A DNA stretch of 64,000 nt from an uncultured Candidatus Saccharibacteria bacterium (lineage in GTDB: Bacteria > Patescibacteriota > Minisyncoccia > Phycocordibacterales > CSBR16-119): NCBI GenBank assembly GCA_964557535.1, contig CAZLAD010000001.1, forward strand, positions 58,482 to 122,481, read 5' to 3'. Each line of letters opens with the position of its first letter. Position 1 is the first letter of the stretch. The notes beneath the pieces are model-generated. The model saw only the letters and a list, made by a program, of their open reading frames with translations, was not told the DNA's origin and did no database searches. This document shows positions 747 to 61,386 of this stretch, one piece after another. A program made the translations under genes and the position numbers.

Positions 747-2483
747 TTAAAAAAGATTTTCTGGGTTTACGCGGATTTGCCAGTCGGGGGTGAGGGAGGT
801 GAGAATTTCGGAGAGTTTGGGGTCTTGGAATTCTTCGTTCCAAATTTTCTTCGAAAGTTTTAAGATTATCAGACTTTCAAAAGTTCTCCCGCGTTTTATT
901 CGACGAGCTAGAGGATTCCAAATTGAAAGATGAGACACAAGAGGTGAGACATTAGAATCAAAATCATCCTTGTTTGACGTTCGTGAAATTCTCATCAGTG
1001 TCCCAAATGGTGGATAGCCGAATTTTTCACGCATGGATTTTTCAAATTCGTAAAATTCTTGCAAGTTTCCGTTCGCCAAAGTTTTTATGGCCAAATTTTC
1101 TATGTCGCGAGTTTGCAAAATTGCTTTCGGTGATAAATTTTTTACAGCGAATCCTAGCGAGAGAATTTTTTCGTAAATTTTATAACTTGGAATTGATAAA
1201 AGCGCGTCGAGAGAGATGATGGCGGTAACGTCGAGTGGTTTGTAGAGGTGGGGGATAGCGAGCTCCGTGCCAACCAAAATCGAATTTGGCGTTTCATAAA
1301 ACTTTTGGACGGTTTCGCGAACTTTTTTGTTAGTCTTCGTCACGTCACCATCGATTTGAAAGATTTTTTTCTTTGGAAAAAGTTTCTTCGCTTCGAGGGC
1401 GATAGTATCGGTGCCGATGCCGAGCGTGTCAAAATTCCAACTACCACAATTCCCACACCTGGTCTTTGGATCAAGTGTTGCACCAGTTTGCGGATTTAGA
1501 AGCACTCTTTCTCCCGCACGCTCTCGCAAAACGAGACCGATATCACCATCTTTTACAATTTGCCCACAATCATGACATACGACCGAGCTTCCGAGGCCCT
1601 TGCGCAAAGCAAAGGCAAAAGCTTTGTCGCTCGTCTTAAATTCCTCAAAAACTTTTTTGGAAAAAATAAAACTTTTTTTCTCTCGATTCTCCTTGTCACT
1701 CATATCAATCACACGAATGGAGGTCGGACCTTGGGTTTTGGTGATTTTCAAATTGTTTTCGACAATTGTTTCGAGTGAAAGTGGTGCGCCAATGAATTCT
1801 ATTTTGATTTTTAAATTTTCGGCCAAGGTACGGAAAAAATATCGCAGATCAAAATATGGTCGTTTGAGGCTTCGATACGCCGAAGAATGTTCATCGTGAA
1901 TTATGATTTTGCCCAAATCGTGTCGTGGCGTAAATGCAAATGATGGAGTCATGATGACGACTACGGGTCCAGGATTTTCCAAAATTTCTTGGTAACGAGC
2001 GAGCAATGTCTTTTTTCTCAAACTTCCGTGGATGACGAAAACATCTCTGTCTAAAGTTTCGGCTAGGCGTTCGACGGCACGGACGGTCGGCGCGATATGA
2101 AAAACTGATGAGCCGACCGTCCGTGATACTGGCTTCGGCAGATCTTCATAATGTTCCAAAAATTCTATTGGCAGAAAGTAGTTGACAATTTGTCCTAAAT
2201 TGCCGACAAAAAATCTTTTCGTTTTATCGCAGGCGATAAAAAATTCTTTGTAAAATTTGGTCTTACCTTTGACGCTTTCAATCTTTTTGAAACCAAATAT
2301 TGCTGTTTTGATTTCTTGTTTCAAGTCTTTGGCGTCGCGAACTCCGACGACCAGAGCGTCGTATTTTTTCTTTCTGACTTCGATCTCGACGACATCACCT
2401 ATAGAAATGTCTTTGGCCGAGAAATAGGTTAGAGAGTCTTTTTGGACTTTGGCGGATATTGGGCTGACTTCGACGAGTTTCAT
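747..2483 (-). CDS. priA: Primosomal protein N' (PriA)-like helicase with degenerate ATPase motifs
   Basis: Helicase motif II IIIHDEHSSAY matches DEEH. C-terminal Cys-rich Zn-binding region CHDCGQ...CGNCGS is present. The Walker A position reads VGSSVFHIAP instead of GxGKT, and motif III SAT reads GAP. The N-terminal 3'BD/WH region is short. Confidence 0.7.
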   Translation of the reverse strand: MKLVEVSPISAKVQKDSLTYFSAKDISIGDVVEIEVRKKKYDALVVGVRDAKDLKQEIKTAIFGFKKIESVKGKTKFYKEFFIACDKTKRFFVGNLGQIVNYFLPIEFLEHYEDLPKPVSRTVGSSVFHIAPTVRAVERLAETLDRDVFVIHGSLRKKTLLARYQEILENPGPVVVIMTPSFAFTPRHDLGKIIIHDEHSSAYRSLKRPYFDLRYFFRTLAENLKIKIEFIGAPLSLETIVENNLKITKTQGPTSIRVIDMSDKENREKKSFIFSKKVFEEFKTSDKAFAFALRKGLGSSVVCHDCGQIVKDGDIGLVLRERAGERVLLNPQTGATLDPKTRCGNCGSWNFDTLGIGTDTIALEAKKLFPKKKIFQIDGDVTKTNKKVRETVQKFYETPNSILVGTELAIPHLYKPLDVTAIISLDALLSIPSYKIYEKILSLGFAVKNLSPKAILQTRDIENLAIKTLANGNLQEFYEFEKSMREKFGYPPFGTLMRISRTSNKDDFDSNVSPLVSHLSIWNPLARRIKRGRTFESLIILKLSKKIWNEEFQDPKLSEILTSLTPDWQIRVNPENLF

Positions 2484-2600
2484 CCCGTTAGAGATAGCAA
2501 ACCTTAGTTTGCGTACCTTTGTTATTGTTTTGTAAATAATTTACGACCACGGCGATATTTCCATCAAGATTAATTGTAACCAAGTTATCTCTAACGGGAT
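2482..2600 (-). repeat. Intergenic IR-bounded element E1 (119 nt), reverse orientation, abutting the priA start codon
   Basis: Terminal inverted repeats ATCCCGTTAGAGAT (2482-2495) and ATCTCTAACGGGAT (2587-2600). Read on the minus strand it ends TACGCAAA-hairpin-TTTGCTATCTCTAACGGG followed directly by the priA ATG. Confidence 0.75.
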
Positions 2601-2661
2601 TCATGCCTTCATCATAGCATTTTGGAAATTCGACACGAAAAGGTAAGATAGACACGTAATT

Positions 2662-17531: not shown

Positions 17532-18527
17532 ATGTACGAATTTTATACAGAAGACGAACAGTATAAAACTGCTCGAAAACCCAACTGGAAAACTATCATT
17601 TTATTGTCTCTAGTGACGGGCGTTTTGATCTTTGGTGGTTTTTCTATATCTTCCCCAAGAGATTTTCCAACAGACAAAGTGATAACCATCAGAAGTGGTT
17701 CATCTTTGGATGCTATTGCCAAACAGTTCGAGGAGGCTGGAGTTGTGAAGTCTGCGGGAATTTTCAAGACTTTCGTCGTCGCGCTTACCAGTGATAGAAA
17801 TATTTCTGACGGGGATTATCTATTTAATCGACGTTTAAATGCATGGCAGATCGCTGAACGGTTGGCGTTTGGTCGGTTTGGAGTTGAGAAAATCACGATA
17901 ACTTTGTTCGAAGGATTGTCGAACAAGGAAATGTCAGAAATTCTGGCGAGTAAACTCGAATCATTTAATCAAGAAGAATTTCTATATCTTACAAAAAATT
18001 TAGAAGGGTATATGTTTCCTGATACATACTACTTTTTCGGATCGGCTACGGCCGTAGATGTGGTCAAAGCCATGCGAGATAATTTTAATAAAAAGGTTAC
18101 CGAGGGTTTACGAGAAGAAATTGAATCATCAGACAAAACCATGGATGAAATCATAACAATGGCATCTATTATCCAAGACGAAGCGCACGACGGATATACC
18201 GAGAAGCAGATGATTTCTGGAATACTTTGGAAAAGAATCAAAATGGGGATGCTTCTACAAGTTGATGCCAGTTTACGTTATGCAAACGGCAAAGACTCAA
18301 AAAGCCTCACGTTGAAAGATTTAGCCGAAGATCATCCTTACAATACTTATGTGCACAAAGGTCTGCCACCGACACCTATTGGCAATCCTGGCGTTGACGC
18401 GATAAGAGCCGCCATGAATCCCGTAGAATCACCATATTTGTTTTATTTACATGATAAAAATGCTAAGATTCACTACGCCAAAAATTACACAGAACACAAA
18501 CAAAACATTGCTAAATACTTAAAATAA
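17532..18527 (+). CDS. mltG: Endolytic murein transglycosylase MltG (YceG-like)
   Basis: N-terminal TM, and a YceG domain with the ASIIQDEA motif and a C-terminal NTYV..GLPPTPIGNPG region. Confidence 0.85.
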   Translation: MYEFYTEDEQYKTARKPNWKTIILLSLVTGVLIFGGFSISSPRDFPTDKVITIRSGSSLDAIAKQFEEAGVVKSAGIFKTFVVALTSDRNISDGDYLFNRRLNAWQIAERLAFGRFGVEKITITLFEGLSNKEMSEILASKLESFNQEEFLYLTKNLEGYMFPDTYYFFGSATAVDVVKAMRDNFNKKVTEGLREEIESSDKTMDEIITMASIIQDEAHDGYTEKQMISGILWKRIKMGMLLQVDASLRYANGKDSKSLTLKDLAEDHPYNTYVHKGLPPTPIGNPGVDAIRAAMNPVESPYLFYLHDKNAKIHYAKNYTEHKQNIAKYLK

Positions 18528-37103: not shown

Positions 37104-38468
37104 TTATATCTTCCTCACCTCAAATTCCTCTCCCAAGTCTTTAATCTCGTAACCAAGAGACTTTATTTTATCGCGAAGCTCGTCTGATTTGTCCCAGTCT
37201 TTGGCGAGGCGGGCGGAGTTGCGTTCACGGGCGAGAGACAGGACTTCATCAGGAATTTCGTCACGGGTCCATGTGTCCATTCCGAGTCCGAGGACCTGGT
37301 CAAAGTCGAGAAGTGTCGCGCGTTTGTCGGCGAGGAGTGTTTCTTTGTCATTTACAAGTTCCCACATGACGGCCAAGGCTTTCGGCGTATTCAAATTGTC
37401 TTCCAAGGCCTCGGTAAATATTTTTTTATAATGCGCGCTCACGGTTCCGATGTCGGTTCCGAGATCGAGAAAATTATTTTTGAGTTTCTTCAGAGCATTT
37501 TGCGAAGCTTCGAGTGACTCCCAAGTGAAGTTTACAAGGCTTCGATAGTTGGCCTGGAGCAAAAAGTAGCGGTAGTCGATCGGACTGAAACCTTTTTCTT
37601 CCAAAGTTTTTAAGTAGACATCATTGCCCAAAGATTTGGAAATTTTTTCATCGTTTACGTTTAGGAAATTGTTGTGAAGCCAGAAGTTTACATATTTTTG
37701 ACCAGTGGCGTTTTCGGACTGGGCGATTTCGTTGTTGTGATGGATGGAGATGTGATCAATCCCGCCGGTGTGGATATCAAAATGCTCGCCCAAATATTTC
37801 ATCGACATACCGGAACATTCGATGTGCCAACCAGGAAAGCCTTTACCCCATGGCGTGTCCCAGCCGAGTTCGGAATTGAATTTCCAAAGCGCAAAGTCAC
37901 GCGGGTTTTTCTTTTCATTGTTTGTCTCCACACGTGCGACATTTTCATCTGAGAGTCCGCCAAGCGCGCCGTATTTGGAATCTTTGGAAGTATCAAAATA
38001 AAGTCCGTCAGAAGTTTTGTAGACGAAACCTTTTTCTTTCAGCTTTTTGATAATCTCAATGTCCTCGGCAATGTGATCAGTCGCGCGAGGGAACTTGTCG
38101 GCGAGAATTATGTTTAGTTTTTGTAAGTCTTCGATATAAGCTTTTTCGTATTTTTCGGCAACTTCTTTCATGGCTTCCACGGTCATTGGCAGACCCTCAC
38201 GTTTCAGGGCCTTGGTCATTTTGTCCTCGCCATCATCGCCGTCCGAAACGAGATGCCCGACGTCGGTTATGTTGATGACGTGTTTTACTTCCAGTCCTTC
38301 GTACCTTAGGGTTCGTTTCAAAATATCGGCGAAAACATACGAACGGAGATTTCCGATGTGGGCATAATTGTAAACGGTCGGTCCGCACGAATACATCTTG
38401 ACCAGACCTTCGGTCCGGGGCTTAAATTCTTCCTCGGTTTTTGAAAGGGTATTGTAAATTTTCAACAT
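37104..38468 (-). CDS. cysS: Cysteinyl-tRNA synthetase
   Basis: CGPTVYNYAHIGNLRSY (HIGH) and KMSKSLGN motifs, with Zn-binding Cys/His positions. Confidence 0.93.
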   Translation of the reverse strand: MLKIYNTLSKTEEEFKPRTEGLVKMYSCGPTVYNYAHIGNLRSYVFADILKRTLRYEGLEVKHVINITDVGHLVSDGDDGEDKMTKALKREGLPMTVEAMKEVAEKYEKAYIEDLQKLNIILADKFPRATDHIAEDIEIIKKLKEKGFVYKTSDGLYFDTSKDSKYGALGGLSDENVARVETNNEKKNPRDFALWKFNSELGWDTPWGKGFPGWHIECSGMSMKYLGEHFDIHTGGIDHISIHHNNEIAQSENATGQKYVNFWLHNNFLNVNDEKISKSLGNDVYLKTLEEKGFSPIDYRYFLLQANYRSLVNFTWESLEASQNALKKLKNNFLDLGTDIGTVSAHYKKIFTEALEDNLNTPKALAVMWELVNDKETLLADKRATLLDFDQVLGLGMDTWTRDEIPDEVLSLARERNSARLAKDWDKSDELRDKIKSLGYEIKDLGEEFEVRKI

Positions 38469-38970: not shown

Positions 38971-39006
38971 AATGGCGGACCGTACCCGGTCCGCCATTCC
39001 GCTTTT
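38971..39006. terminator. Bidirectional terminator between the 38553 ORF (+) and corA (-)
   Basis: 12-bp stem AATGGCGGACCG/CGGTCCGCCATT with loop TACC, then CCGCTTTTC. Confidence 0.75.
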
Positions 39007-39926
39007 CACATCCATTTCTTGCCTTTGAAATAGATTATAGTTATGAGTCCGACGATGACCATAAGAACCAAAACCAAGAAAAAGTCATTTGGACTATGGA
39101 TGAAAAGCACGTTTTCAGAAGTGTTCATACCGAAAATTCCAGTAATAAGCGTGACGGGCAGAAGAACCGACGTCATGGCGGTGAGGCGACCCATGGCCGT
39201 GTTTGTCTTTGTGGTCAAAAGTGAGTCGTTCGTGTCTCGCAAGTCAGTTAAAATCTCTTTGCCAACATCGAGGGTGTTTTTGACCCGGTTGTATTCTGAA
39301 GTAGCGATACCGAGAAGGTGATGAAAATTCTGTCCAAATAATTCGACAGACGATATTTCGAAAGATTTAAAAATTTCCCCATGATGACGCAAGGCTTGTT
39401 TGAAATTCAAGAATTTTCTATTCGTTTCAGAGATTTGTGAGACAGCCTCGACTTGTTTTTCTTTGAAAATATTTTTCTCGATCATTTTGAGTGAGTCATT
39501 GATATTTTCGAGGTTGTCGAGAGAGTTTTTGTAAATTTCGCGCAATAAATGTACAAAAAGATATCCGGCATTCTCGCCAATATTTGTTTTGTCGAGGTAT
39601 GATTCGCGTTCAAACATCCGAGAAAAATTGTTTACGGGATCGATTTTTTCATATCGAGTCGTGATTAGAAAATTTTGACCGATAACAAAATCGATTTCTT
39701 GTTCCACGGAATCTTCACCTTGGCCGATGACAGGAAAATGGAGAACCAGATATATAAGACCAAGTTTTTTATAATAATCGACTTTTGAACGAATCGTGCA
39801 AGTCCCGAGTTCTTCAGCGATTGTCTCCGGCAACTTGTATTCTTCGGCAATATCTAGAATCTCGCCACGGGTCGGAGATTCAAGATCAACCCAAGTAGTA
39901 TTTTTATATTTGTATTTGAAAATCAT
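39006..39926 (-). CDS. corA: Magnesium/cobalt transporter CorA
   Basis: C-terminal two TM helices with the signature FGMNTS (GMN) motif. Confidence 0.85.
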   Translation of the reverse strand: MIFKYKYKNTTWVDLESPTRGEILDIAEEYKLPETIAEELGTCTIRSKVDYYKKLGLIYLVLHFPVIGQGEDSVEQEIDFVIGQNFLITTRYEKIDPVNNFSRMFERESYLDKTNIGENAGYLFVHLLREIYKNSLDNLENINDSLKMIEKNIFKEKQVEAVSQISETNRKFLNFKQALRHHGEIFKSFEISSVELFGQNFHHLLGIATSEYNRVKNTLDVGKEILTDLRDTNDSLLTTKTNTAMGRLTAMTSVLLPVTLITGIFGMNTSENVLFIHSPNDFFLVLVLMVIVGLITIIYFKGKKWM

Positions 39927-41606: not shown

Positions 41607-42998
41607 CTAAAAGCTATCAAATGCTTCGTCGGCATTAACTACCGGTCCGTAACCGCCACTTTTCTCGATCGGCAAGAATGTTGAATTTTTCTCGTCGAAA
41701 TACAAATCAACTTTTCCAACCGGACCGTTTCGGTGTTTTTCGATCAAGATCTCGGCGATACCAGTAGACTCGCTGTCGGTTCTGGTACCGGATCTGTCTT
41801 CGCGGTGGATGAACATGACGACGTCGGCGTCTTGTTCGATGGAACCGGAGTCGCGAAGGTCAGAAAGTCTCGGTTTACCACCACGAGATTCGACGGCACG
41901 CGAAAGCTGAGAAAGTGCAAGGACGGGGACGTTTAGTTCGCGAGCGAGGCCTTTGAGCGAGCGGGAAATTTCGGTAACTTGGTTGACCATCGAATCGTAA
42001 TTTTTGCTCGTGTTCATGAGTTGGAGGTAGTCGACGACGATGAGTCCGAGACCGAATTCGGTTTTCCAGCGACGGGCGACGGACTTCATTTTGATGATAG
42101 AGTTTCCAGCTTGGTCGTCGATGTAAATTGGCGCTTTTGAAAGTTCGTTCAAGGCGTCGCGGATTTTATTGAAATCTGACTCGGCGCTAAGTTTCCCGGT
42201 GCGGAGTTTCCAGGCATCGACGTGGGCTTGGGCAGAGAGCATGCGTTGGGTTAATTGTTGCGCAGACATTTCCAGAGAAAATACGCCGACCGGAACACCG
42301 GCTTTGACCGCGGCGTTTCTGGCGATGTCGAGCGCGAGAGTTGTTTTACCGACTGATGGACGCGCCGCGAGAATAATGAGATCGGATTTGTGAAGTCCAC
42401 CAAGCAGGTTGTCGAGACTTGTAAATCCAGTTGTGACGCCACCCAAGCCTTCTTTGTTGTCGTGAAGTTTTTCGAGATGCTCCCAAGTTTCGTGCAAGCT
42501 TTGTTTTAGACTAACGAATGTCTGACCTTTCGGATCGCCGGTAATAGCAAAAACTTTTTTCTCGGCTTCGTCCATCAAGTCTTCGACGGGTACATCGGAT
42601 TCGGAAAATCCAACATTGGCCAAATGTTCTCCGGCTTCGATAAGCCTCCTCATCAAACTTTTCTTGTAAACGATGCGAGCGTAATGCTTCACATTGGTCG
42701 AAGCGGGAACGGAATTTGTCAGATCGGTCAGATATGTGCGGCCACCGATTTGTTCGAGTTGTCCGCGATTTTTTAGAGATGTTGAAAGTGACAAGAGATC
42801 AATCGGTTCGTTTTTGGAAAACAGATCAATCATCGCTTTGAAAATTATGCGATGTTTTTCGGAATAAAAAGTTTCAGCTTGGACGATGTCGATGATTTCG
42901 TTTAGGGCTTGCGGATTTAGCATAATCGAACCCAAAGTTGCTTGCTCGGCATCGAGATCGTGGGGCGGAATGCGTACATGTTTTTTGACTTCAGACAT
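41607..42998 (-). CDS. dnaB: Replicative DNA helicase DnaB
   Basis: Walker A LIILAARPSVGKTTLAL, Walker B VVDYLQLM, and a RecA-like C-terminal domain. Confidence 0.93.
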   Translation of the reverse strand: MSEVKKHVRIPPHDLDAEQATLGSIMLNPQALNEIIDIVQAETFYSEKHRIIFKAMIDLFSKNEPIDLLSLSTSLKNRGQLEQIGGRTYLTDLTNSVPASTNVKHYARIVYKKSLMRRLIEAGEHLANVGFSESDVPVEDLMDEAEKKVFAITGDPKGQTFVSLKQSLHETWEHLEKLHDNKEGLGGVTTGFTSLDNLLGGLHKSDLIILAARPSVGKTTLALDIARNAAVKAGVPVGVFSLEMSAQQLTQRMLSAQAHVDAWKLRTGKLSAESDFNKIRDALNELSKAPIYIDDQAGNSIIKMKSVARRWKTEFGLGLIVVDYLQLMNTSKNYDSMVNQVTEISRSLKGLARELNVPVLALSQLSRAVESRGGKPRLSDLRDSGSIEQDADVVMFIHREDRSGTRTDSESTGIAEILIEKHRNGPVGKVDLYFDEKNSTFLPIEKSGGYGPVVNADEAFDSF

Positions 42999-43356: not shown

Positions 43357-44331
43357 ATGGAAAAAAAGATTCTAGTTTCGGGGGCCAAGCCGACAGGCAG
43401 ACTTCATATCGGTAATTATTTTGGCGCGTTGAAACAATTTGTTGATTTACAAAAAGACTACAAAGTCCATATTTTTTTGGCTGACTATCACGCGCTCACA
43501 AGCATTCACGACCGACAAGAAATGCAGAGACTTTCTTTTGATCTTATTTGCGCATACCTCGCTATTGGAATCGATCCCAAAAAATCTATTTTATATCGTC
43601 AGTCAACGCTTCCCGAACACGCAGAGCTCGCCTGGATATTTAACTGCCTTATCAGTGTTCCTTGGCTTGAGCGCGCGCATGCCTTCAAAGATGCTCAAGC
43701 GAAAAAATCAGACATAAACGTTGGAACTTTTGATTACCCGGTTCTCATGGCTGCGGACATCCTCATGTACGATGGTGAGGTGGTGCCGGTCGGTAAAGAT
43801 CAGGTTCAGCACATCGAAATGGCGCGCGAGATAGCGAACAAGTTCAACAACACGTTCGGCGAAACTTTCAAAACACCCAAAGAACTGCTCGTCAAAGAAG
43901 TTGAAATTGTGCCAGGCACTGATGGACAAAAAATGTCCAAAAGCTACGGCAACGTCATTCCGCTTTTTGGAACTGACGCCGAGATTGAAAAGGCGGTTAA
44001 GAGCATTGTCACAGATTCGAAATCTCCAGCCGAGAAAAAAGTCGCCGAGGAAAATAATATTTACAAAATTTACAAGCTCGTCGCAACAGCAGAAGAGCGC
44101 GAAGCGATGCGTGCCGGATTTGAGCAGGGCGGACTTGGGTATGGCGAAGCGAAAAAGATGCTTCTTGCGAAAATTTTGGAATACTTTGGACCCATGAGAA
44201 AAGTATATGACAAGTTTCAAGCCAATCCGAAAAAGGTGTATAATATCTTGGCCCGCGGTGAGAAAAAGATGCGCAAACTCGCCGAGAAGAAAATGGCCAC
44301 AGTGCGCAAGTTAACGGGTTTGAGAAATTAA
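43357..44331 (+). CDS. trpS: Tryptophanyl-tRNA synthetase
   Basis: HIGH-class motif (GRLHIGNYFGA) and KMSKSYGN. Confidence 0.93.
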   Translation: MEKKILVSGAKPTGRLHIGNYFGALKQFVDLQKDYKVHIFLADYHALTSIHDRQEMQRLSFDLICAYLAIGIDPKKSILYRQSTLPEHAELAWIFNCLISVPWLERAHAFKDAQAKKSDINVGTFDYPVLMAADILMYDGEVVPVGKDQVQHIEMAREIANKFNNTFGETFKTPKELLVKEVEIVPGTDGQKMSKSYGNVIPLFGTDAEIEKAVKSIVTDSKSPAEKKVAEENNIYKIYKLVATAEEREAMRAGFEQGGLGYGEAKKMLLAKILEYFGPMRKVYDKFQANPKKVYNILARGEKKMRKLAEKKMATVRKLTGLRN

Positions 44332-44344
44332 TAAAAAAGATGGG

Positions 44345-44459
44345 TCCCGTAAGAGATGTTTTGTTAAAAACAATCACTTCGCGGGTAGGGGTTCGAAGAG
44401 TTATTTAATTACAAAAATTAACAGGGTACGCAAATTAATAATTTGCTATCTCTAACGGG
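44345..44459 (+). repeat. IR-bounded element E2 (115 nt) ending at the ATG of a 49-aa membrane ORF
   Basis: TCCCGTAAGAGAT ... TACGCAAATTAATAATTTGCTATCTCTAACGGG followed by ATG. It begins 14 nt after the trpS stop. Confidence 0.75.
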
Positions 44460-44609
44460 ATGAAAAATTTTGTTTTGGGTTTGGTTTTTGTTTTGATTTT
44501 GATTGCGGTTATCGTTTTATTCAAGAGAATGGGCGAAGAGAAAGAACCAGAACTTAGGAGCTTGGACGAATTTTCAAATATTCAGGAGGGCGACATATTG
44601 CCACAATAG
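44460..44609 (+). CDS. Small hydrophobic protein (49 aa), putative
   Basis: MKNFVLGLVFVLILIAVIVLFKRMGEEKEPELRSLDEFSNIQEGDILPQ. The start codon is the ATG that terminates element E2. A terminator follows. It is below the ORF-track length cutoff. Confidence 0.4.
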   Translation: MKNFVLGLVFVLILIAVIVLFKRMGEEKEPELRSLDEFSNIQEGDILPQ

Positions 44610-48946: not shown

Positions 48947-49071
48947 CGTGGCTATGTTGTTGTGTTGTTTACGTGTCTAAAATCACTATAAAAATAATTA
49001 CCTCTTATGTCAATAATTTGTTTAGCACAATATACAAAATTCAATTTCTGTATTAGAATGTAGATCATACA

Positions 49072-49151
49072 ATCCCGATAGTGAAAGCGGTCGCTTTCGG
49101 GAGAATTACTGGTATTTATTAATCTAAAGACCGCAAACTATCACTATCGGG
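49072..49151 (+). repeat. IR-bounded element E3 (short variant, 80 nt) ending at the aspS ATG
   Basis: AATCCCGATAGTGA ... TCACTATCGGG followed by ATG. Internal palindrome GAAAGCGGTCGCTTTC. Confidence 0.7.
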
Positions 49152-50573
49152 ATGCAATCAAGAACTTATATCCGCGATCTTTCGAGTCGCGCTGGGGAAG
49201 AAGTCGTCATAAAAGGCTGGATTCAGATTCGCCGTGACCAGGGGAAAATGATTTTCTTTGATTTTCGTGACGCCACCGGCGTCGTGCAGGGCGTCGTCCT
49301 TCCGGGTTCTAATGCTATGGATACGGCCAAAGAAACTCGCTCCGAATGGGTGGTTGCGGTCACGGGAAAAGTAAATGCTCGCCCTGAAAAAAATATCAAA
49401 GTCGGGGTTTTAAACGGTGACATCGAACTTGAAGTTTTGGGTATGGAAGTTTTAAACAAGGCCGAGACTCCGCCATTTGATATTTTGGCCGATACGCGCG
49501 AAGTCAACGAAGAAACACGTCTGACCAATCGTTACATCGATATTCGTTCCGAACGCCTCCAGAAAAATCTGCGCATGCGTCACAAGGTTCAGAATTTTGT
49601 GCGAGCAAATTTGGACGCGCAAAATTTCGTGGAAGTTGAAACTCCAATTTTCACCAAATCCACTCCCGAAGGCGCTCGCGATTATGTCGTACCATCTCGC
49701 ATTTATCCGGGAAACTTTTACGCGCTTCCACAATCTCCGCAACAATACAAACAACTTCTCATGGCTGGTGGCATGGAACGCTACTATCAATTCGCTCGTT
49801 GTATGCGTGACGAGGACCTGCGCGGTGATCGCCAACCAGAATTTACTCAGCTCGACATGGAAATGTCTTTTGCGACCGAAGAAGATGTCATGGCGGTGAC
49901 CGAAAATCTGCTCATAAAAATTGTCACAGAGCTTTATCCTGAGAAAAAAATTCAAGCAATTCCTTTCCCGAGAATTCCTTATAAAGAAGCGATGGAAAAA
50001 TATGGATCCGATCGGCCGGACATTCGCGAAAACAAAGAAGACCCAAACTCTCTCGCGTTTTGCTGGGTAGTGGATTTTCCATTTTTCGAAAGAACTGACA
50101 AATCTGACAATCCTCAGGCCGAGGGAGAATGGACATTTACTCACAATCCGTTTTCGATGTGCAAACCAGAGCATTTACCAAATGTTATGAACAAGGAAAA
50201 TATTGGTGATGTTCTCGCGGCGCAATACGACATCGTCCTCAATGGTTATGAAATCGGCGGGGGATCGATTCGTGCGCATGATCCGGAGATTTTGAAAAAT
50301 ATTCTCGGCATCCTCGGCTACACTCCAGAGAAAATCGAAACCGACTACGGCCACATGCTTCGGGCGCTTGCATCCGGCACGCCTCCGCACGGCGGACTTG
50401 CTTGGGGCTTTGATCGTCTGATGATGATTCTCCAAAACGAACCGAACATCCGCGAAGTTATTGCATTTCCGAAAACTCGAGAGGGAAGAGATCCAATGAT
50501 GCAATCACCGTCACCAGTTTCGGATAAACAACTCGCGGAACTAAATATTTCGATAAATAAAAGAAGGGAATAA
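49152..50573 (+). CDS. aspS: Aspartyl-tRNA synthetase (short form without GAD insertion domain)
   Basis: N-terminal OB anticodon-binding domain. Class II motifs (FRDATGV...; GGGSIR; GLAWGFDRL). 473 aa. Confidence 0.93.
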   Translation: MQSRTYIRDLSSRAGEEVVIKGWIQIRRDQGKMIFFDFRDATGVVQGVVLPGSNAMDTAKETRSEWVVAVTGKVNARPEKNIKVGVLNGDIELEVLGMEVLNKAETPPFDILADTREVNEETRLTNRYIDIRSERLQKNLRMRHKVQNFVRANLDAQNFVEVETPIFTKSTPEGARDYVVPSRIYPGNFYALPQSPQQYKQLLMAGGMERYYQFARCMRDEDLRGDRQPEFTQLDMEMSFATEEDVMAVTENLLIKIVTELYPEKKIQAIPFPRIPYKEAMEKYGSDRPDIRENKEDPNSLAFCWVVDFPFFERTDKSDNPQAEGEWTFTHNPFSMCKPEHLPNVMNKENIGDVLAAQYDIVLNGYEIGGGSIRAHDPEILKNILGILGYTPEKIETDYGHMLRALASGTPPHGGLAWGFDRLMMILQNEPNIREVIAFPKTREGRDPMMQSPSPVSDKQLAELNISINKRRE

Positions 50574-50644: not shown

Positions 50645-50680
50645 CGAGCCCCCGTGATACGGGGGCTCGAATCGTTTGTT
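50645..50680. terminator. Bidirectional intrinsic terminator after aspS
   Basis: Stem CGAGCCCCCG/CGGGGGCTCG with loop TGATA. Confidence 0.75.
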
Positions 50681-51773: not shown

Positions 51774-51875
51774 AATCCCGATAGTGATTATAAGTCGGGT
51801 TAAATAATTTACTTAGATAAAGTTTGTAATTTGTTGTAAAATGAAAAAATCTCTTAATCAATAATCACTATCGGG
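51774..51875 (+). repeat. IR-bounded element E4 (102 nt) filling the scpA-scpB spacer
   Basis: AATCCCGATAGTGATTA ... AATCACTATCGGG followed by the scpB ATG. It begins 2 nt after the scpA stop. Confidence 0.75.
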
Positions 51876-52430
51876 ATGAATTTGGAATCAAAAATCGAAT
51901 CTTTTTTGTTTTGGAAAGGTGAACCGCAGACAGAGTGGGAGATAGCTGTTGCTATGCGAGTTGATCCGGCTGAAATTCCGGGAGCCCTGGCAAAGCTCGA
52001 AGAATCGCTAAAAGGCCATGGTGTTACACTTGTCCGTCATGGAAACAAGGTGATGCTTGGCACGAATCCCGAAATGTCACATTTTTTTGAAGAACTTCAG
52101 AAAGAAGAACTGAGCAAAGAACTTTCCAAAGCTGCGCTCGAGACACTTTCGATAATTCTCTACAAGGATTCGGTGACGCGAAGCGAGATAAATTTTATTC
52201 GCGGAGTGAACTCAGGATACATCTTGAGAAATCTGGAAATTCGCGGATTGGTGGAGAAAGCAAACCAAAAAAACGATGCCCGCACGTATGTTTACAAGCC
52301 GACTCTCGAATTGTTATCATATCTCGGGGTTTCCAAGGTCTCCGATTTGCCACAGTTCGAAACGATCAGAAATACACTCGAGACCAAGCTCTCCGGTCAG
52401 CCAGATCAGGAAGGAAATGAATCCCGTTAG
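51876..52430 (+). CDS. scpB: Segregation and condensation protein B
   Basis: Tandem winged helices (ALETLSIILYKDSVTRSEINFIRGVNSGYILRNLEIRGLVEK). Confidence 0.85.
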   Translation: MNLESKIESFLFWKGEPQTEWEIAVAMRVDPAEIPGALAKLEESLKGHGVTLVRHGNKVMLGTNPEMSHFFEELQKEELSKELSKAALETLSIILYKDSVTRSEINFIRGVNSGYILRNLEIRGLVEKANQKNDARTYVYKPTLELLSYLGVSKVSDLPQFETIRNTLETKLSGQPDQEGNESR

Positions 52431-52539
52431 AGATTGATTGGTTACAAATTCAGAAAAAAGCGGGTAGAATACGAAGGGTAAATTAATTATAAATTTTAAT
52501 ACAAGCTACGTCGCGCCGGGTGCGACTATCTCTAACGGG
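52421..52539 (+). repeat. IR-bounded element E5 (119 nt); left IR overlaps the scpB stop codon
   Basis: ATCCCGTTAGAGAT at 52421-52434 contains the scpB TAG. ...GTCGCGCCGGGTGCGACTATCTCTAACGGG is followed by ATG (dacA-like). Confidence 0.75.
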
Positions 52540-53481
52540 ATGAAGATTAGAATTAAAGAATCCGAAAGACAAATTATATTTGCGATGGTCTTACTGGCCA
52601 TCGTGGGTGTTTTTTATGTTCGTCAAATAAATCAAGAAATTATTTTAGGTGAAATAAAAGACAAAGAAATTCTCGCATACGAGGAATCGATTAAACCGTT
52701 TTTGAACTTGGCGCTCGAGGCCAAATCTTTCGCTATTTATGACGCTGATATAAATAATTTTGTTTACAAGAAAAACGCCGAGAGCGCCATGCCGCTTGCA
52801 AGTCTGGCCAAAGTCATGAGCGCGATTGTGGTGATGGAGAATGCACCGGCCGACACGGTGTTTGAAATTTCCAAAGAATCGCTTGACCAAGCCGCCGATC
52901 ATGGACTTCTACTTCATGAGAAATGGACTCGTGACGAACTTTTGAAATTTGCGCTACTTGTCTCTTCAAATGACGCTATTCACGAGCTTGCACTTGAAAC
53001 AGGCCAGATCATGGATCCCGAAGCCAAAGACTCGCTCCAAGTTTTCGTAGCGCGTATGAATACCAAAGCATCCGAACTAGGGCTCAAAAGTTTTGTCTTC
53101 AAAAACGAATCAGGACTTGATCTAAATGAAGCAGAAAATGGTGCGTATGGTTCGGCGCGCGACATGGCCAAACTTTTTGCTTACGCGGTCAAAACCTATC
53201 CAGAAATTTTTGACGTAACTCGCACCAAGATTGCGACGATTGCCTCACTTGATAAATCGCACAACATCGACAACACCAACACTGTCGTCGAAGAAATTCC
53301 TGGAATTGTCGCTTCAAAGACTGGATTTACGACTCTCACTGGTGGGAATTTGGTCGTAGCGACAACCCCCGATGCCAAATCAACTCGCGTTATGATAGTC
53401 ATGGGATCGACATATGATGAACGCTTTACCGACATGAAAACTCTCACCAGTGCCGTGGCCCATAGTAACAATAATTTATGA
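52540..53481 (+). CDS. dacA: D-alanyl-D-alanine carboxypeptidase (S11, PBP5/6-like)
   Basis: SLAKVMS (SxxK), SSND (SxN) and KTGFT (KTG) motifs. N-terminal TM or signal. Confidence 0.8.
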   Translation: MKIRIKESERQIIFAMVLLAIVGVFYVRQINQEIILGEIKDKEILAYEESIKPFLNLALEAKSFAIYDADINNFVYKKNAESAMPLASLAKVMSAIVVMENAPADTVFEISKESLDQAADHGLLLHEKWTRDELLKFALLVSSNDAIHELALETGQIMDPEAKDSLQVFVARMNTKASELGLKSFVFKNESGLDLNEAENGAYGSARDMAKLFAYAVKTYPEIFDVTRTKIATIASLDKSHNIDNTNTVVEEIPGIVASKTGFTTLTGGNLVVATTPDAKSTRVMIVMGSTYDERFTDMKTLTSAVAHSNNNL

Positions 53482-54548: not shown

Positions 54549-54613
54549 GTCTATTGACTTTTTTCAAAAAAACAAGATATAAAAAATACGAAAACCAACA
54601 AAGAACCTTCCCA

Positions 54614-55333
54614 ATGAAACTCAATCCCAACTTCGTCTTCGGGGCGGTTCTCGCCCTCGTCTTTACCTGCTTCCTTGCTGGCATGAAGGATAGCACGCTT
54701 CCATTCGTGCCGACACTCATCGTATCCTTCCTGGTGTGCTATCCCTGGAAGATCGGTAAGAATGTCTGGTCCGTCTTTGGCGGATTCAATGATGATGGGA
54801 GTGTCTATTCGCTTTTTGGTGTAGTCCAAATGGCTTCTGGTAGCGCCATTTCCGGTGGAGGAATCAGTCTTTTCCAATATGCTGGCGACAACTCTTTTCA
54901 GGCCATCGGACTCTGTCTCTATCAATATGCCGAAGGCCCAAGCCCCTTAAAAGTACAAGGCCAAGGTGTCGGCATAGCTGTGTGTATGAGGACTCGAGGT
55001 GGCTCTCTAGGACAACTCGTTGGCCTAACTCTATTCATGGAGTGTGAAAACGATAACGCAGTCCAAATTGCAGGCGTTGTCCTGTTTCAGAGAGGCATGC
55101 AGGTCTTTCAGGGTGTTGGTTTGTGCGGTGTGCAAATCTCTACCGAAACAAAGCTTAGTCAGTCGGATGATGGTGAAGCCATACAACGAGCTGGTCTGGT
55201 CCTGTATCAAAAGGCAAATCAGAGAGCTTATCAGGATATTGGCCTAAGGCTGTTCGTCAGTGGCGCCATCAAACGAGGAACATTCCTTACCATCACGATC
55301 TTTGAGAAGGAGAAGGAGGTGGTTCTGGCATAG
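54614..55333 (+). CDS. Membrane-anchored tandem-repeat protein (about nine 16-residue repeats), GC-rich insertion between mraY and ftsW
   Basis: About 54% GC. N-terminal TM (FVFGAVLALVFTCFLAG), then repeats with the core xQxxGLxL[FY]Q (FQAIGLCLYQ, GQLVGLTLFM, VQIAGVVLFQ, FQGVGLCGVQ, IQRAGLVLYQ, YQDIGLRLFV). It has its own terminator (55358-55392). The start is chosen at MKLNPN; the ORF track gives 54554. Confidence 0.5.
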   Translation: MKLNPNFVFGAVLALVFTCFLAGMKDSTLPFVPTLIVSFLVCYPWKIGKNVWSVFGGFNDDGSVYSLFGVVQMASGSAISGGGISLFQYAGDNSFQAIGLCLYQYAEGPSPLKVQGQGVGIAVCMRTRGGSLGQLVGLTLFMECENDNAVQIAGVVLFQRGMQVFQGVGLCGVQISTETKLSQSDDGEAIQRAGLVLYQKANQRAYQDIGLRLFVSGAIKRGTFLTITIFEKEKEVVLA

Positions 55334-56521: not shown

Positions 56522-56638
56522 ATCCCGTTAGAGATGTCGTAGTCAAAATTATTCAGGAAGGTTATAAAATAATGGTCGTCAATTACTTACAAAATATTAA
56601 GTCAGATACGCAAACCAAAGTTTGCTATCTCTAACAGG
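56522..56638 (+). repeat. IR-bounded element E6 (117 nt) filling the ftsW-murG spacer
   Basis: ATCCCGTTAGAGAT ... GGTCGTCAATTACTTACAAAAT...GATACGCAAACCAAAGTTTGCTATCTCTAACAGG followed by the murG ATG. Confidence 0.75.
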
Positions 56639-57769
56639 ATGAAAATTGTTATTACAGGCGGTGGTTCGGGAGGGCATTTTTATCCTGCTATCGCAATAGC
56701 AGAGAAGTTGAACGAACTTGCATTGGCTGAAAAAATTTTAGATCTTGAGCTTTTTTATATTGCCGACACCCCATACGACAAACGCGCGCTCGACGACAAT
56801 CGAATGACTTTTTTGGAACTAAATACTGGAAAACAAAGAACATATTTTTCTGTTCAAAATTTTTTTGATATCTTCAAAACTTTTTTCGCGACAATTCGAG
56901 CAATTTTTATCCTTTATAAAATTTTTCCAGATGTTGTTTTCTCCAAAGGTGGCTATCCGTCGGTTCCGGTGACTATTGCTTCGAGAGTGCTTGGGATACC
57001 TGTCGTTATCCACGAATCAGATTCTGTACCTGGACGCGCCAACAAAATGGCTGGTAAGTGGGCAAAACGTATTGCGATTTCTTACAAAGAAGCTTCGGAT
57101 TATTTCCCCAAAGAAAAAACCGCTTTCGTTGGACACATTGTCAGAAAAGAAATTCGAACACCGCTTAGAGAGGGGGCTTTTGAATATCTAAAATTAAAGT
57201 CTTCTTTGCCTGTTATTTTTATTTTGGGTGGTTCGCAAGGTGCCAAGATAATAAACGAGACGATTTTAAATGCTTTGCCAGAGCTTGTCACGAGATATCA
57301 AATTATCCATCAGACAGGAGTAAAAAATTTTGAAGAAGTGAAAATTATTGCCGATCTAAATCTAAAAGAATCAGAAGCCAAACAAAATTATTATCCATAT
57401 CCATATCTAAACAAACTAGCCATACGTATGGCGGCGGGGGTCGCGGAGCTTGTCGTCTCTCGTGCGGGAGCAAATTCTATTGCCGAAATAGCATCATGGG
57501 GACTACCGTCTATCATCATCCCGATAACAAAAACAAATGGTGATCACCAGCGCAACAATGCGTTTAACTATGCTGAAACAGGAGCATGTGTAGTAATCGA
57601 AGAATCCAATTTGGCTCCGAATGTTTTGATCGAAGAAATAGATAGGCTTTTTGCTGATACAGCGACCTTTAAAAACATGAAGGAAGCAACATCAAAATTT
57701 GTTTTTCCAGACGCCGAAGAAAAAATTGCCCGAGAGATAATTAATATCGGACTTTCCCATGAGCAATAA
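56639..57769 (+). CDS. murG: UDP-GlcNAc:MurNAc-pentapeptide GlcNAc transferase
   Basis: N-terminal GGGSGGHFYPA loop. GT-B fold. C-terminal UDP-binding region. Confidence 0.9.
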   Translation: MKIVITGGGSGGHFYPAIAIAEKLNELALAEKILDLELFYIADTPYDKRALDDNRMTFLELNTGKQRTYFSVQNFFDIFKTFFATIRAIFILYKIFPDVVFSKGGYPSVPVTIASRVLGIPVVIHESDSVPGRANKMAGKWAKRIAISYKEASDYFPKEKTAFVGHIVRKEIRTPLREGAFEYLKLKSSLPVIFILGGSQGAKIINETILNALPELVTRYQIIHQTGVKNFEEVKIIADLNLKESEAKQNYYPYPYLNKLAIRMAAGVAELVVSRAGANSIAEIASWGLPSIIIPITKTNGDHQRNNAFNYAETGACVVIEESNLAPNVLIEEIDRLFADTATFKNMKEATSKFVFPDAEEKIAREIINIGLSHEQ

Positions 57770-60914: not shown

Positions 60915-60937
60915 ATTTGCTATTATTTAAGTACGTG

Positions 60938-61056
60938 TCCCGGTAGTGATACCTCGGTTTTGGATGGGATAATTAGTAATCTAACCACGGTCGTGAATTC
61001 TTTACAAAAAACTAACTTCGATACGCAAATTTAATAAATTTGCTATCACTATCGGG
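60938..61056 (+). repeat. IR-bounded element E7 (119 nt) ending at the ATG of the 61057 gene
   Basis: TCCCGGTAGTGATA ... CCACGGTCGTGAATTCTTTACAAAAAACTAACTTCGATACGCAAATTTAATAAATTTGCTATCACTATCGGG followed by ATG. It contains the same CACGGTCGTG motif as the grpE promoter region. Confidence 0.75.
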
Positions 61057-61386
61057 ATGATAAAAATCCTCGTCGGTGTGATTCTCTTGCTTGTTGTGCT
61101 CGGACTTTTGGGTGTATCTGTCCAGCACGATGTTATCGAACATGAAGGTGTTCAAGAAAACGTCTCGTATGTCTCGACAGGGGTCGTGGGATTTTGGAAT
61201 ACATATTTATCTCAACCCGCGCAATGGTTATGGCAAGAACTCATTGTAAATATTCTCTGGGAAACTTTTGCTCGAAATATGGAACGTCTACGTGACGGCG
61301 AGACTCCGACTGACTTCACCAATTCGCACCTCGACGACTGGCCAAGTATCCCGGAACTTATCGACAATTACAACGCGAATAATTAA
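61057..61386 (+). CDS. Hypothetical membrane-anchored protein (109 aa)
   Basis: N-terminal TM (IKILVGVILLLVVLGLLGV). No motifs. Confidence 0.45.
   Translation: MIKILVGVILLLVVLGLLGVSVQHDVIEHEGVQENVSYVSTGVVGFWNTYLSQPAQWLWQELIVNILWETFARNMERLRDGETPTDFTNSHLDDWPSIPELIDNYNANN

Follow-up and report, generated by a model that had tools for sequence, protein, structure and literature searches.

What places seven copies of one short inverted repeat directly in front of start codons within 64 kb of a single bacterial genome? The question is raised by a 64,000-nt stretch of contig CAZLAD010000001.1 (assembly GCA_964557535.1, positions 58,482 to 122,481, forward strand) from an uncultured Candidatus Saccharibacteria bacterium, hereafter the window, for which the initial annotation had named three candidates: a mobile element resembling MITEs, the miniature transposable elements with inverted repeats, and landing at leaderless start sites, a promoter/terminator cassette, and an RNA element whose stem would hide the start codon. 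The analysis reported here strongly favours a specific form of the first: the seven repeats are very probably non-autonomous, internally deleted copies of an element of about 280 bp which is widespread in Patescibacteria, among bacteria of the Paceibacteria type, and whose sole gene encodes a GIY-YIG nuclease.

Seven copies bounded by inverted repeats, E1 to E7, of 82-122 nt were confirmed in the window; these are the seven first listed, with boundaries no more than 1-3 nt from those given. E1 (2482-2600, reverse strand; element proper 2483-2599) is a short non-autonomous copy in front of the open reading frame (ORF) 747-2483 of the same strand, and has both termini exact and ATGAA on either flank. 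The others lie on the forward strand. The short copy E2 (44344-44461; element proper 44345-44460) precedes a membrane-peptide gene (44460-44609), and on its left side both the terminus and the duplication copy have degenerated (ATGG followed by GTCCCGTAAGAGAT). E3 (49072-49153) is, with 82 nt, the shortest copy and precedes aspS (49152-50573), while E4 (51775-51877, 103 nt) lies between scpA and scpB (start 51876). Three further short copies are E5 (52421-52541; element proper 52422-52540), between scpB and a dacA-like gene (52540); E6 (56522-56640; element proper 56523-56639), between ftsW and murG (56639), whose left duplication copy has decayed to ATAA and whose right terminus has one mismatch (CAGGAT); and E7 (60937-61058), in front of a 109-amino-acid (aa) ORF (61057-61386).

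The terminus pattern ATCCCGNTAGNGAT, with at most one mismatch, matched 13 times in the window against 0.12 expected, and none of 100 shuffles reached 13. There are two terminus subtypes, in which the left and right arms covary: TTAGAGAT/ATCTCTAA and ATAGTGAT/ATCACTAT, the latter found in E3, E4 and E7. The inverted repeats of 13-14 bp and the two subtypes described by the initial annotation thus stand, except that the true ends lie one base further in. Every right end reads CGGG directly followed by an ATG that opens an ORF, as had been claimed. That the motif might be a plain, unpaired promoter consensus is contradicted by the window itself, where every right-end motif has its left partner and where the terminus motif is missing from ordinary promoters, which read TGnTAnAAT at a distance of 6-7 nt upstream of the ATG. 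The termini (13-14 bp) are kept in about 150 copies from other Patescibacteria. The interiors of E1, E2, E6 and E7 are 67-71% identical and have in common a lineage-specific GCAAA/TTTGC hairpin, TACGCAAA..TTTGC, seen in all four as initially noted. In E6 this subterminal hairpin is GCAAAC-N4-GTTTGC (56610-56625, forward strand), and its equivalents lie at 2497-2512 in E1, 44430-44446 in E2, 52510-52526 in E5 and 61025-61043 in E7. Across genomes, the hairpin shows compensatory changes (GGAAA/TTTCC, GCAAA/TTTGC, GGTCGC/GCGACC). Scans of the whole window for Rfam families (gathering threshold) and for tRNAs gave no match.

The comparison with orthologous sites in relatives, which the initial annotation had suggested, revealed exact empty sites and supports the view of a discrete inserted element. 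The region around ScpB was taken from relatives in which ScpB is 73-87% identical and synteny is conserved, and all six testable window sites are unoccupied in relatives. Five of these sites (E2 and E4-E7) are represented in syntenic relatives by one ATGA only, in place of the ATGA, the element and the second ATGA of the window. At E4, for example, the window reads ...aaactaATGA, the element and ATGAatttgg, versus ...aatttaATGAatttag in relatives; this empty site (...ataatttaATGAatttagaatc) was found in six loci, where stop and start codons overlap by 1 nt. At E5, the relatives read ...gaaaATGAaaatta and scpB and dacA overlap by 11 nt, exactly as predicted from deleting E5 plus one ATGA. The E2 site is empty in the relatives L250 and L251 (...aatcgATGAaaaatttt), the E6 site in L250, L251 and L252 (in L252, ...gataaattATGAaaatactt) and the E7 site in L251 (...tttgttattattaagccATGAttaaaac), while aspS of the relatives is preceded by a native leaderless promoter (TACTAAAAT-N7-ATGCAATCAAG) without any element. 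Presence and absence are also reciprocal, in that L250 has its own degenerate copy of about 80 nt (17798-17877, termini ATTTCTAATGGGAT/ATTTCTAACGGGAC) between murG and the next gene, vs an overlap of these two genes in the window. Judged from these alignments, the copies are insertions, and neither a promoter consensus nor a regulon.

The exact ends of the insertion were deduced from copies collected by a genome scan and by a metagenome scan in which only the right end was specified and the left was unconstrained (118 copies). It should be noted that the 14-base pattern used for the genome scan is too loose for 596 Gb, and most of the 120 loci are chance matches; only about 25 loci, all from Patescibacteria, are usable. 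Four matches in viral contigs (L253-L256) were likewise discarded as coincidental, because they consist of a 17-mer, CTATCTCTAACGGGATG, in phage structural genes encoding ...AISNGM.... Identical ATGN was present on both sides in 22 of the 36 copies from the genome scan and in 81 of the 118 from the metagenome scan. The fourth base covaries between the two sides (A/A 60, G/G 18, C/C 2, T/T 1, with 2 discordant; Fisher p=2e-17), and so does the fifth, i.e. the first base of the supposed 14-nt left terminus compared with host position +4 (A/A 90, G/G 6, with 7 discordant; p=8e-6). A duplication of only 2 bp (GN), which would match the 2-nt overhangs of GIY-YIG enzymes, was rejected because the fifth base covaries too. 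At the other side, three left copies have G or T in front of the TG, i.e. an old GTG or TTG start, and this base is therefore not duplicated; a 4-bp ATGN duplication was refined to TGNN for this reason. These junctions are most economically read as an element proper TCCCG...CGGGA (TCCCGTTAGAGAT...ATCTCTAACGGGA) whose ends form a perfect inverted repeat of 13 bp, flanked by a TGNN duplication of 4 bp. As the last base of the element is A, the host ATG is always restored at the right junction.

The target, (A)TGRA, nearly always consists of a start codon and the two bases that follow it, and a target logo of the reconstructed empty sites showed that only the ATG, a purine at the next position (95%) and the following A (94%) are in common. 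All seven window copies are at starts, although of the ATGRA sites available there 20 are at called starts, 22 in non-coding sequence and 287 inside genes. Elements were also found in tandem with one common ATGA (CGGGATGAATCCCG), in L009 (4717-5014), in L013 (5897-6280) and at the left flanks of L161 and L164; the regenerated start site is therefore open to a second insertion.

By length, the collected copies form four classes (about 80-100, 110-139, 180-219 and 270-289 nt), the last of which shows variation at third codon positions. About 30 of the 118 metagenomic copies are full length (276-282 nt) and carry an ORF that spans the element end to end and encodes a GIY-YIG nuclease of 84-95 aa. 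No longer class with the same termini was present among the 118 copies, searched to 3 kb upstream, and no transposase was seen beside the copies. In 12 of the 30 full-length copies, all of 279 or 282 nt and at ATGA targets, the ORF begins at the host's former ATG and ends in a TGA that overlaps the new one. The predicted protein starts with M-NPVRD, in which NPVRD is encoded by the left terminus, and ends with ...KRFLSLTG, in which LSLTG is encoded by the right terminus, and its stop codon TGA lies in the right duplication copy, overlapping the regenerated ATG (GGG ATG A). The start of this 279/282-nt form is either leaderless behind a host promoter or operon-internal. At ATGG targets a 280-nt variant is found, read in the other frame and ending at a TAA inside the right terminus. 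Four intact nuclease ORFs have no internal Met, so that the host-derived ATG must be the start. The nuclease is under purifying selection (median dN/dS, the ratio of non-synonymous to synonymous substitution rates, 0.19; dS 1.5), with the catalytic residues invariant (Y12/Y14, Y25-T26-G27, R33/R35 and E59) or at least 90% conserved (H39).

PF01541 (GIY-YIG) is the only Pfam domain above the curated cut-offs in this protein (E=8e-18; 64.9 bits versus a cut-off of 22.6), T5orf172 and MUG113 remaining below theirs, and the only NCBIfam match is a sub-threshold one to a group I intron endonuclease (23 bits versus a cut-off of 56). Searches of Pfam and NCBIfam detected no transposase class (DDE, DEDD, HUH, serine or tyrosine) in the full-length element, and Pfam no accessory or DNA-binding domain beyond the single nuclease domain. 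The nearest solved structures in a phmmer search, and the only ones matched, were the UPF0213 proteins 1ZG2 and 1YWL (E=2.7e-5). An AlphaFold (AF2) model reached a predicted local distance difference test (pLDDT) score of 84, with the core above 84, while the tails encoded by the terminal repeats were of low confidence and outside the confident fold. Foldseek ranked 1ZG2 first and then Slx1 (probability 1.00, template modelling (TM) score about 0.6), with UvrC at 0.41 and I-TevI at 0.38. Sequence similarity and the predicted fold assign the nuclease to the Slx1/UPF0213 lineage of GIY-YIG enzymes. The protein family comprises more than 4,298 clusters, mostly of exactly 95 or 86 aa, from Paceibacterota and Patescibacteria, whose only database labels are 'GIY-YIG nuclease family protein' and 'putative endonuclease'. 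The termini of the element were also seen in Wolfe-, Lipton-, Campbell-, Ryan-, Nomura- and Zambryski-bacteria, as well as in Paceibacterota metagenome-assembled genomes.

The relationship of the short copies to this parent is clearest in other genomes, where they map to positions 1 to about 104 plus about 258-282 of the full-length element. In L174, for instance, positions 1-27 of the copy correspond to 1-27 of the element, 81-95 to 90-104 and 96-119 to 259-282. The deletion lies between complementary segments, an inner inverted repeat in the codons for DLRKR and KRF, and the hairpin arms of these mapped short copies correspond to that inner repeat. The hairpins of the window copies, which resemble these in sequence, probably have the same origin, and the window copies themselves may well have arisen by the same kind of internal deletion; this derivation is suggested by the common termini, target and duplication, together with the clear intermediates found elsewhere. 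In E1, E3 and E7 the best interior match to full-length elements (z at most 1.3) is in each case at the ARSRELYLKS codons, a position that would explain the GGTCGT.AATT..TTTACAAAA motif noted earlier. The idea that the short copies maintain a small ORF or translational coupling was rejected, because 45 of 79 have early stops in the frame of the old ATG; in the window only E1, and E6 with its dead start, are open in this frame to the TAA. By every criterion testable on the sequence the window copies qualify as MITEs: they are small and non-coding, have terminal repeats and a duplication, vary in presence between relatives, and have a longer coding relative.

Two further groups were observed among the collected copies. 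In 23 copies of 180-219 nt (L129-L248), positions 1 to about 104 and the right end are joined by some 70 nt that do not map. A subfamily with an inverted repeat of about 25 bp and a GC-rich stretch (GAGACCGCGGTCGC...) has no separate subterminal hairpin (L013 6158-6280; L076 1977-2094 and 5563-5684; L110 1109-1227; L119 133-248).

Taken together, the 279/282-nt element sits at a host start codon in such a way that the nuclease ORF is opened by the host's old ATG, and is closed by a stop codon from the right duplication copy, while the last A of the element rebuilds the ATG of the host gene. The short copies of other genomes arose by deletion between the inner inverted repeats, with the subterminal hairpin left as a remnant. 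The enzyme that moves the element is, we infer, the nuclease, whose conserved ORF fills the element and makes it the obvious candidate. By analogy with Slx1, it may recognise branched or cruciform DNA, and the nested repeats (the 13-bp termini plus an inner repeat of 12-14 bp by the right end) could form a branch exactly at the element's ends. Since there are inverted repeats, a duplication and many unrelated targets, the sequence features point to transposition rather than classical homing. We give somewhat better than even odds to a new class of prokaryotic DNA transposons, in which a minimal Slx1-like nuclease is the only enzyme and the ORF, having neither a start nor a stop codon of its own, becomes complete and expressed only at a host start codon, (A)TGAA. 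Such a transposon would take promoter and ATG from the left copy of the duplication and TGA from the right one, hand an ATG back to the host gene and leave it to be translated by stop-start coupling, and have spread to thousands of Patescibacteria lineages, leaving abundant deletion derivatives behind, the seven of the window among them.

Several observations weigh against this interpretation. To the best of our knowledge, integration with a duplication of 4 bp is not known for any GIY-YIG nuclease, and an enzyme of this hydrolytic kind would depend on ligation or repair by the host. No intact nuclease gene that could be a source of the enzyme was found in the 64-kb window, and its seven copies showed no similarity to the nuclease (tblastn, nhmmer). 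The interiors of the window copies are not more similar to full-length elements than shuffled sequences are (z at most 1.3), and the uniform orientation of the short copies could fit in-place decay of full-length insertions instead of transposition of the short copies themselves. The specificity for start codons may partly be a survival filter, as its p value is only 6e-3 if insertions into coding sequence are lethal. Finally, the genes behind E3, E6 and E7 have a dead old start and no canonical outward promoter.

Among the other explanations, the closest is that the copies are MITEs moved in trans by a conventional (e.g. DDE) transposase, with the GIY-YIG ORF as a passenger or as an addiction/maintenance gene. 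A 4-bp duplication with perfect terminal repeats is the classic DDE signature, and no precedent for integration by a GIY-YIG nuclease alone is known to us. However, an element of 276-282 nt occupied end to end by its ORF has no room for a second gene, that ORF is under purifying selection, and neither a longer class with the same termini nor an adjacent transposase was seen, so that we regard a conventional transposase as unlikely. A free-standing homing endonuclease gene, copied by recombination and represented at its many sites by many independent site-specific lineages, appears less probable still. GIY-YIG is indeed a classic homing-endonuclease fold, the weak NCBIfam match is to a group I intron endonuclease, and presence/absence between relatives would also be expected from homing; but homing neither leaves nor needs the terminal repeats and target duplication that are present here. 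Moreover, the nuclease has no DNA-binding domain and a fold like that of Slx1 rather than I-TevI, the only common target is ATGRA, the sites precede unrelated genes, and seven of them lie within 64 kb of one genome.

That the repeats are not insertions at all, and are instead a host regulatory device, either a leaderless promoter/operator cassette or an RNA leader hiding the AUG, is very improbable. What speaks for it is the right end, TGCTATCTC-N7-ATG, which resembles the extended -10 arrangement TGCTAAAAT-N6/7-ATG, as well as the stem that pairs the AU of the AUG and the hairpin kept by compensatory changes. At the orthologous sites, however, there are native promoters or gene overlaps instead, the duplication covaries with host sequence, and the linked genes have no common function; the -10-like box (TATCTC/TATCAC) is without the conserved last T, an outward sigma-70 promoter at the right ends was accordingly not called by the scan, although a weak one is possible, and no terminator-like site coincided with a copy in that scan. 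Every predicted fold of read-through RNA has the AU of the AUG paired within the terminal stem (z -2.7 to -6.1), as expected from the inverted repeats themselves. Selection on such an RNA stem was rejected: the excess of G.U-compatible arm mismatches (24 versus 9) comes from position 1 alone, which is part of the duplication, and without it the counts are 7 versus 9. There is also no Rfam match. Of the three candidates first proposed, therefore, the MITE-like element at leaderless starts was supported by the empty sites, the covarying duplication and the mostly leaderless appearance of the organism, the promoter/terminator cassette found no support in the scan, and of the RNA idea only the closure of the stem in every predicted fold was borne out, without the expected G.U bias. 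Secondary co-option as promoter or leader is possible, and is a separate claim. A pair of operators was also considered, and rejected on the sequence and the empty sites. The least credible explanation, which we practically dismiss, is that of integron attC-like recombination sites flanking gene cassettes: GTTAGAG/CTCTAAC loosely resembles the attC core GTTRRRY/RYYYAAC, but the last base is off consensus, core and inverse core stand in the opposite order relative to the gene, no GTT is present in subtype B (GATAGTG), and the flanked genes (aspS, scpB, murG) are syntenic housekeeping genes rather than cassettes.

The effect of the insertions on the host genes can be read at each site. The left terminus provides stop codons (TGA, TAG) to upstream genes that overlapped the start: one of its frames meets TGA at once, and another reads GAA TCC CGT TAG. 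Thus scpB now ends at the TAG 52428-52430 inside the left terminus of E5, in agreement with the reported overlap of a left repeat with the scpB stop codon. At E1, the native promoter, with its extended -10 box TGCTATGAT (2611-2619, reverse strand) 6 nt upstream of the retained old ATG (2602-2604), is intact. The frame of this old ATG runs for 38 codons (MNPVRD...TQTKVCYL) to a TAA in the right terminus, 4 nt before the host ATG, and a translation of the host gene by termination-reinitiation is plausible from this arrangement. The old-start frame stops early in E2, E4 and E5, and the old start itself has decayed to ATA in E3 and E6 and to ACG in E7. Behind short copies, host genes may be expressed from a weak outward promoter (TGCTATCTC-N7-ATG) or by read-through, while in full-length copies translation of the host gene would be coupled to that of the nuclease through the ATGA overlap.

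The host genes themselves are unrelated housekeeping genes with no common function. Pfam supported the names of aspS, scpB, the S11 D-Ala-D-Ala carboxypeptidase (dacA-like) and murG; the 109-aa ORF at 61057 had no Pfam match, and the label 'priA' given earlier to 747-2483 (reverse strand) could not be upheld, as this 578-aa ORF has no Pfam match at E<=1e-4. The 49-aa ORF behind E2 (44460-44609) has a hydrophobic N-terminal stretch and directly follows the gene of a class I (W/Y-type) tRNA synthetase; since a called gene of 52 aa is conserved at the same place in L250 and L251, the ORF probably encodes a genuine small protein.

Shine-Dalgarno sequences are nearly absent from the genes of the window, many of which have an extended -10 box (TGCTAAAAT, TGATATAAT, TGTTATAAT or TGCTATACT) 6-7 nt upstream of the ATG, for example those at 41607-42998, 37104-38468 and 39006-39926 on the reverse strand and at 43357, 51043 and 55411. 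For many genes the start codon is therefore the transcription start, and the organism appears to be mostly leaderless; other genes overlap the preceding stop codon (ATGA, TAATG). Native boxes of this type also stand to the left of two further copies. That of aspS, TAGAAT (49054-49059, forward strand), lies 7 nt upstream of the decayed old start ATA, left of E3, and belongs to a promoter called by the scan at 49031-49059 (TATACA-17-TAGAAT), and that at E7, TGCTATTAT (60918-60926, forward strand), lies 6 nt upstream of the decayed old start, with TGTTATTAT-N6-ATGA as its orthologue in L251.

Two other features of the window were recorded. Between aspS and a convergent small ORF, a GC-rich hairpin of 11 bp, followed on either strand by a T-rich tail (50645-50669), looks, from its sequence, like a bidirectional terminator. 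The interval between the mraY-like gene and ftsW is a variable spot within an otherwise syntenic cell-wall cluster: it contains an unannotated ORF of about 250 aa in the window (54554-55333) and in L252, a 985-aa DEAD/ResIII helicase gene in L250 (12571-15528), and none in L251.

The short copies have much in common with known bacterial MITEs (Correia/NEMIS of Neisseria, ERIC/IRU, pneumococcal RUP) that are found beside genes and change their expression; these are multicopy sequences of about 80-150 nt with terminal repeats and a short duplication, vary in presence, form a long hairpin when transcribed, and occur in short operon spacers. Those MITEs depend on conventional transposases, duplicate TA or a similar sequence, and lie at varied intergenic positions. 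Unlike them, the copies described here have a parent with only a GIY-YIG gene, a start-codon target (A)TGRA, and an end that rebuilds the ATG. There are also similarities to IS200/IS605 elements with their PATE derivatives and to the REP/REPIN sequences mobilised by RAYT, which are tiny, have hairpin ends, one small nuclease-type enzyme and a short target, and are accompanied by abundant non-autonomous hairpin derivatives. IS200/IS605 and RAYT enzymes, though, are HUH tyrosine enzymes acting on single-stranded DNA, and leave no target duplication, as opposed to the 4-bp duplication and GIY-YIG enzyme found here. The Penelope-like retroelements of eukaryotes are mobile and dependent on a GIY-YIG endonuclease; their movement, in addition, passes through RNA and requires a reverse transcriptase, for which the present element has no room. 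The GIY-YIG homing genes (I-TevI in group I introns, Seg of T4) are likewise selfish, carry a GIY-YIG domain and spread into empty sites. I-TevI and Seg have a separate DNA-binding domain and a long specific target, with no terminal repeats and no duplication, and the structural match of I-TevI to the element nuclease is much weaker (probability 0.38).

As to the enzyme, UPF0213 proteins (BH0048 = 1ZG2, EF2693 = 1YWL, E. coli YhbQ) resemble it in their minimal single domain, fold and catalytic residues. In a 2006 survey of the superfamily, 1ZG2 and 1YWL were placed in a bacterial Slx1 family of minimal stand-alone domains, seen as mainly vertically inherited repair proteins (PMC1564403). In contrast with that view, the nuclease studied here is bounded by repeats and a duplication, multicopy, and absent from orthologous sites. 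The nuclease domain of eukaryotic Slx1-Slx4 can be superposed on it (TM about 0.6, root mean square deviation 2-4 A; 7CQ2, 6SEI, 4XM5, 7CQ4). According to the titles of PDB entries, Slx1 cuts branched DNA, which suits an element with branch-forming nested repeats; unlike Slx1-Slx4, the element nuclease has no RING domain and no Slx4 partner, and an activity on branched DNA would follow by analogy.

A full-text search found no published description of such an element, most subscription journals being outside its coverage; the element appears to be widespread in Patescibacteria and uncharacterised. GIY-YIG ORFs have been described in non-intron insertions of rRNA genes of the candidate phyla radiation (CPR) (PMC11270868), and these insertions may belong to the same element family.

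If the interpretation proposed here is correct, GIY-YIG enzymes of the Slx1 type would join the short list of enzymes that move prokaryotic DNA transposons, and the element, with about 280 bp, would count as one of the smallest autonomous mobile elements we know of. Thousands of CPR database entries with bare GIY-YIG or 'putative endonuclease' labels would thereby be given an identity, and annotators of these genomes should treat gene starts, short spacers and seeming 'promoter motifs' with caution, as they are shaped by such insertions. The nuclease, compact and with both its short target and its DNA ends defined, could also become a tool, if its activity is confirmed. For the organism, the element would be a near-harmless parasite of a streamlined, mostly leaderless genome, which inserts at the only position that lets it borrow promoter, start and stop from its host, and which restores the start of the host gene.

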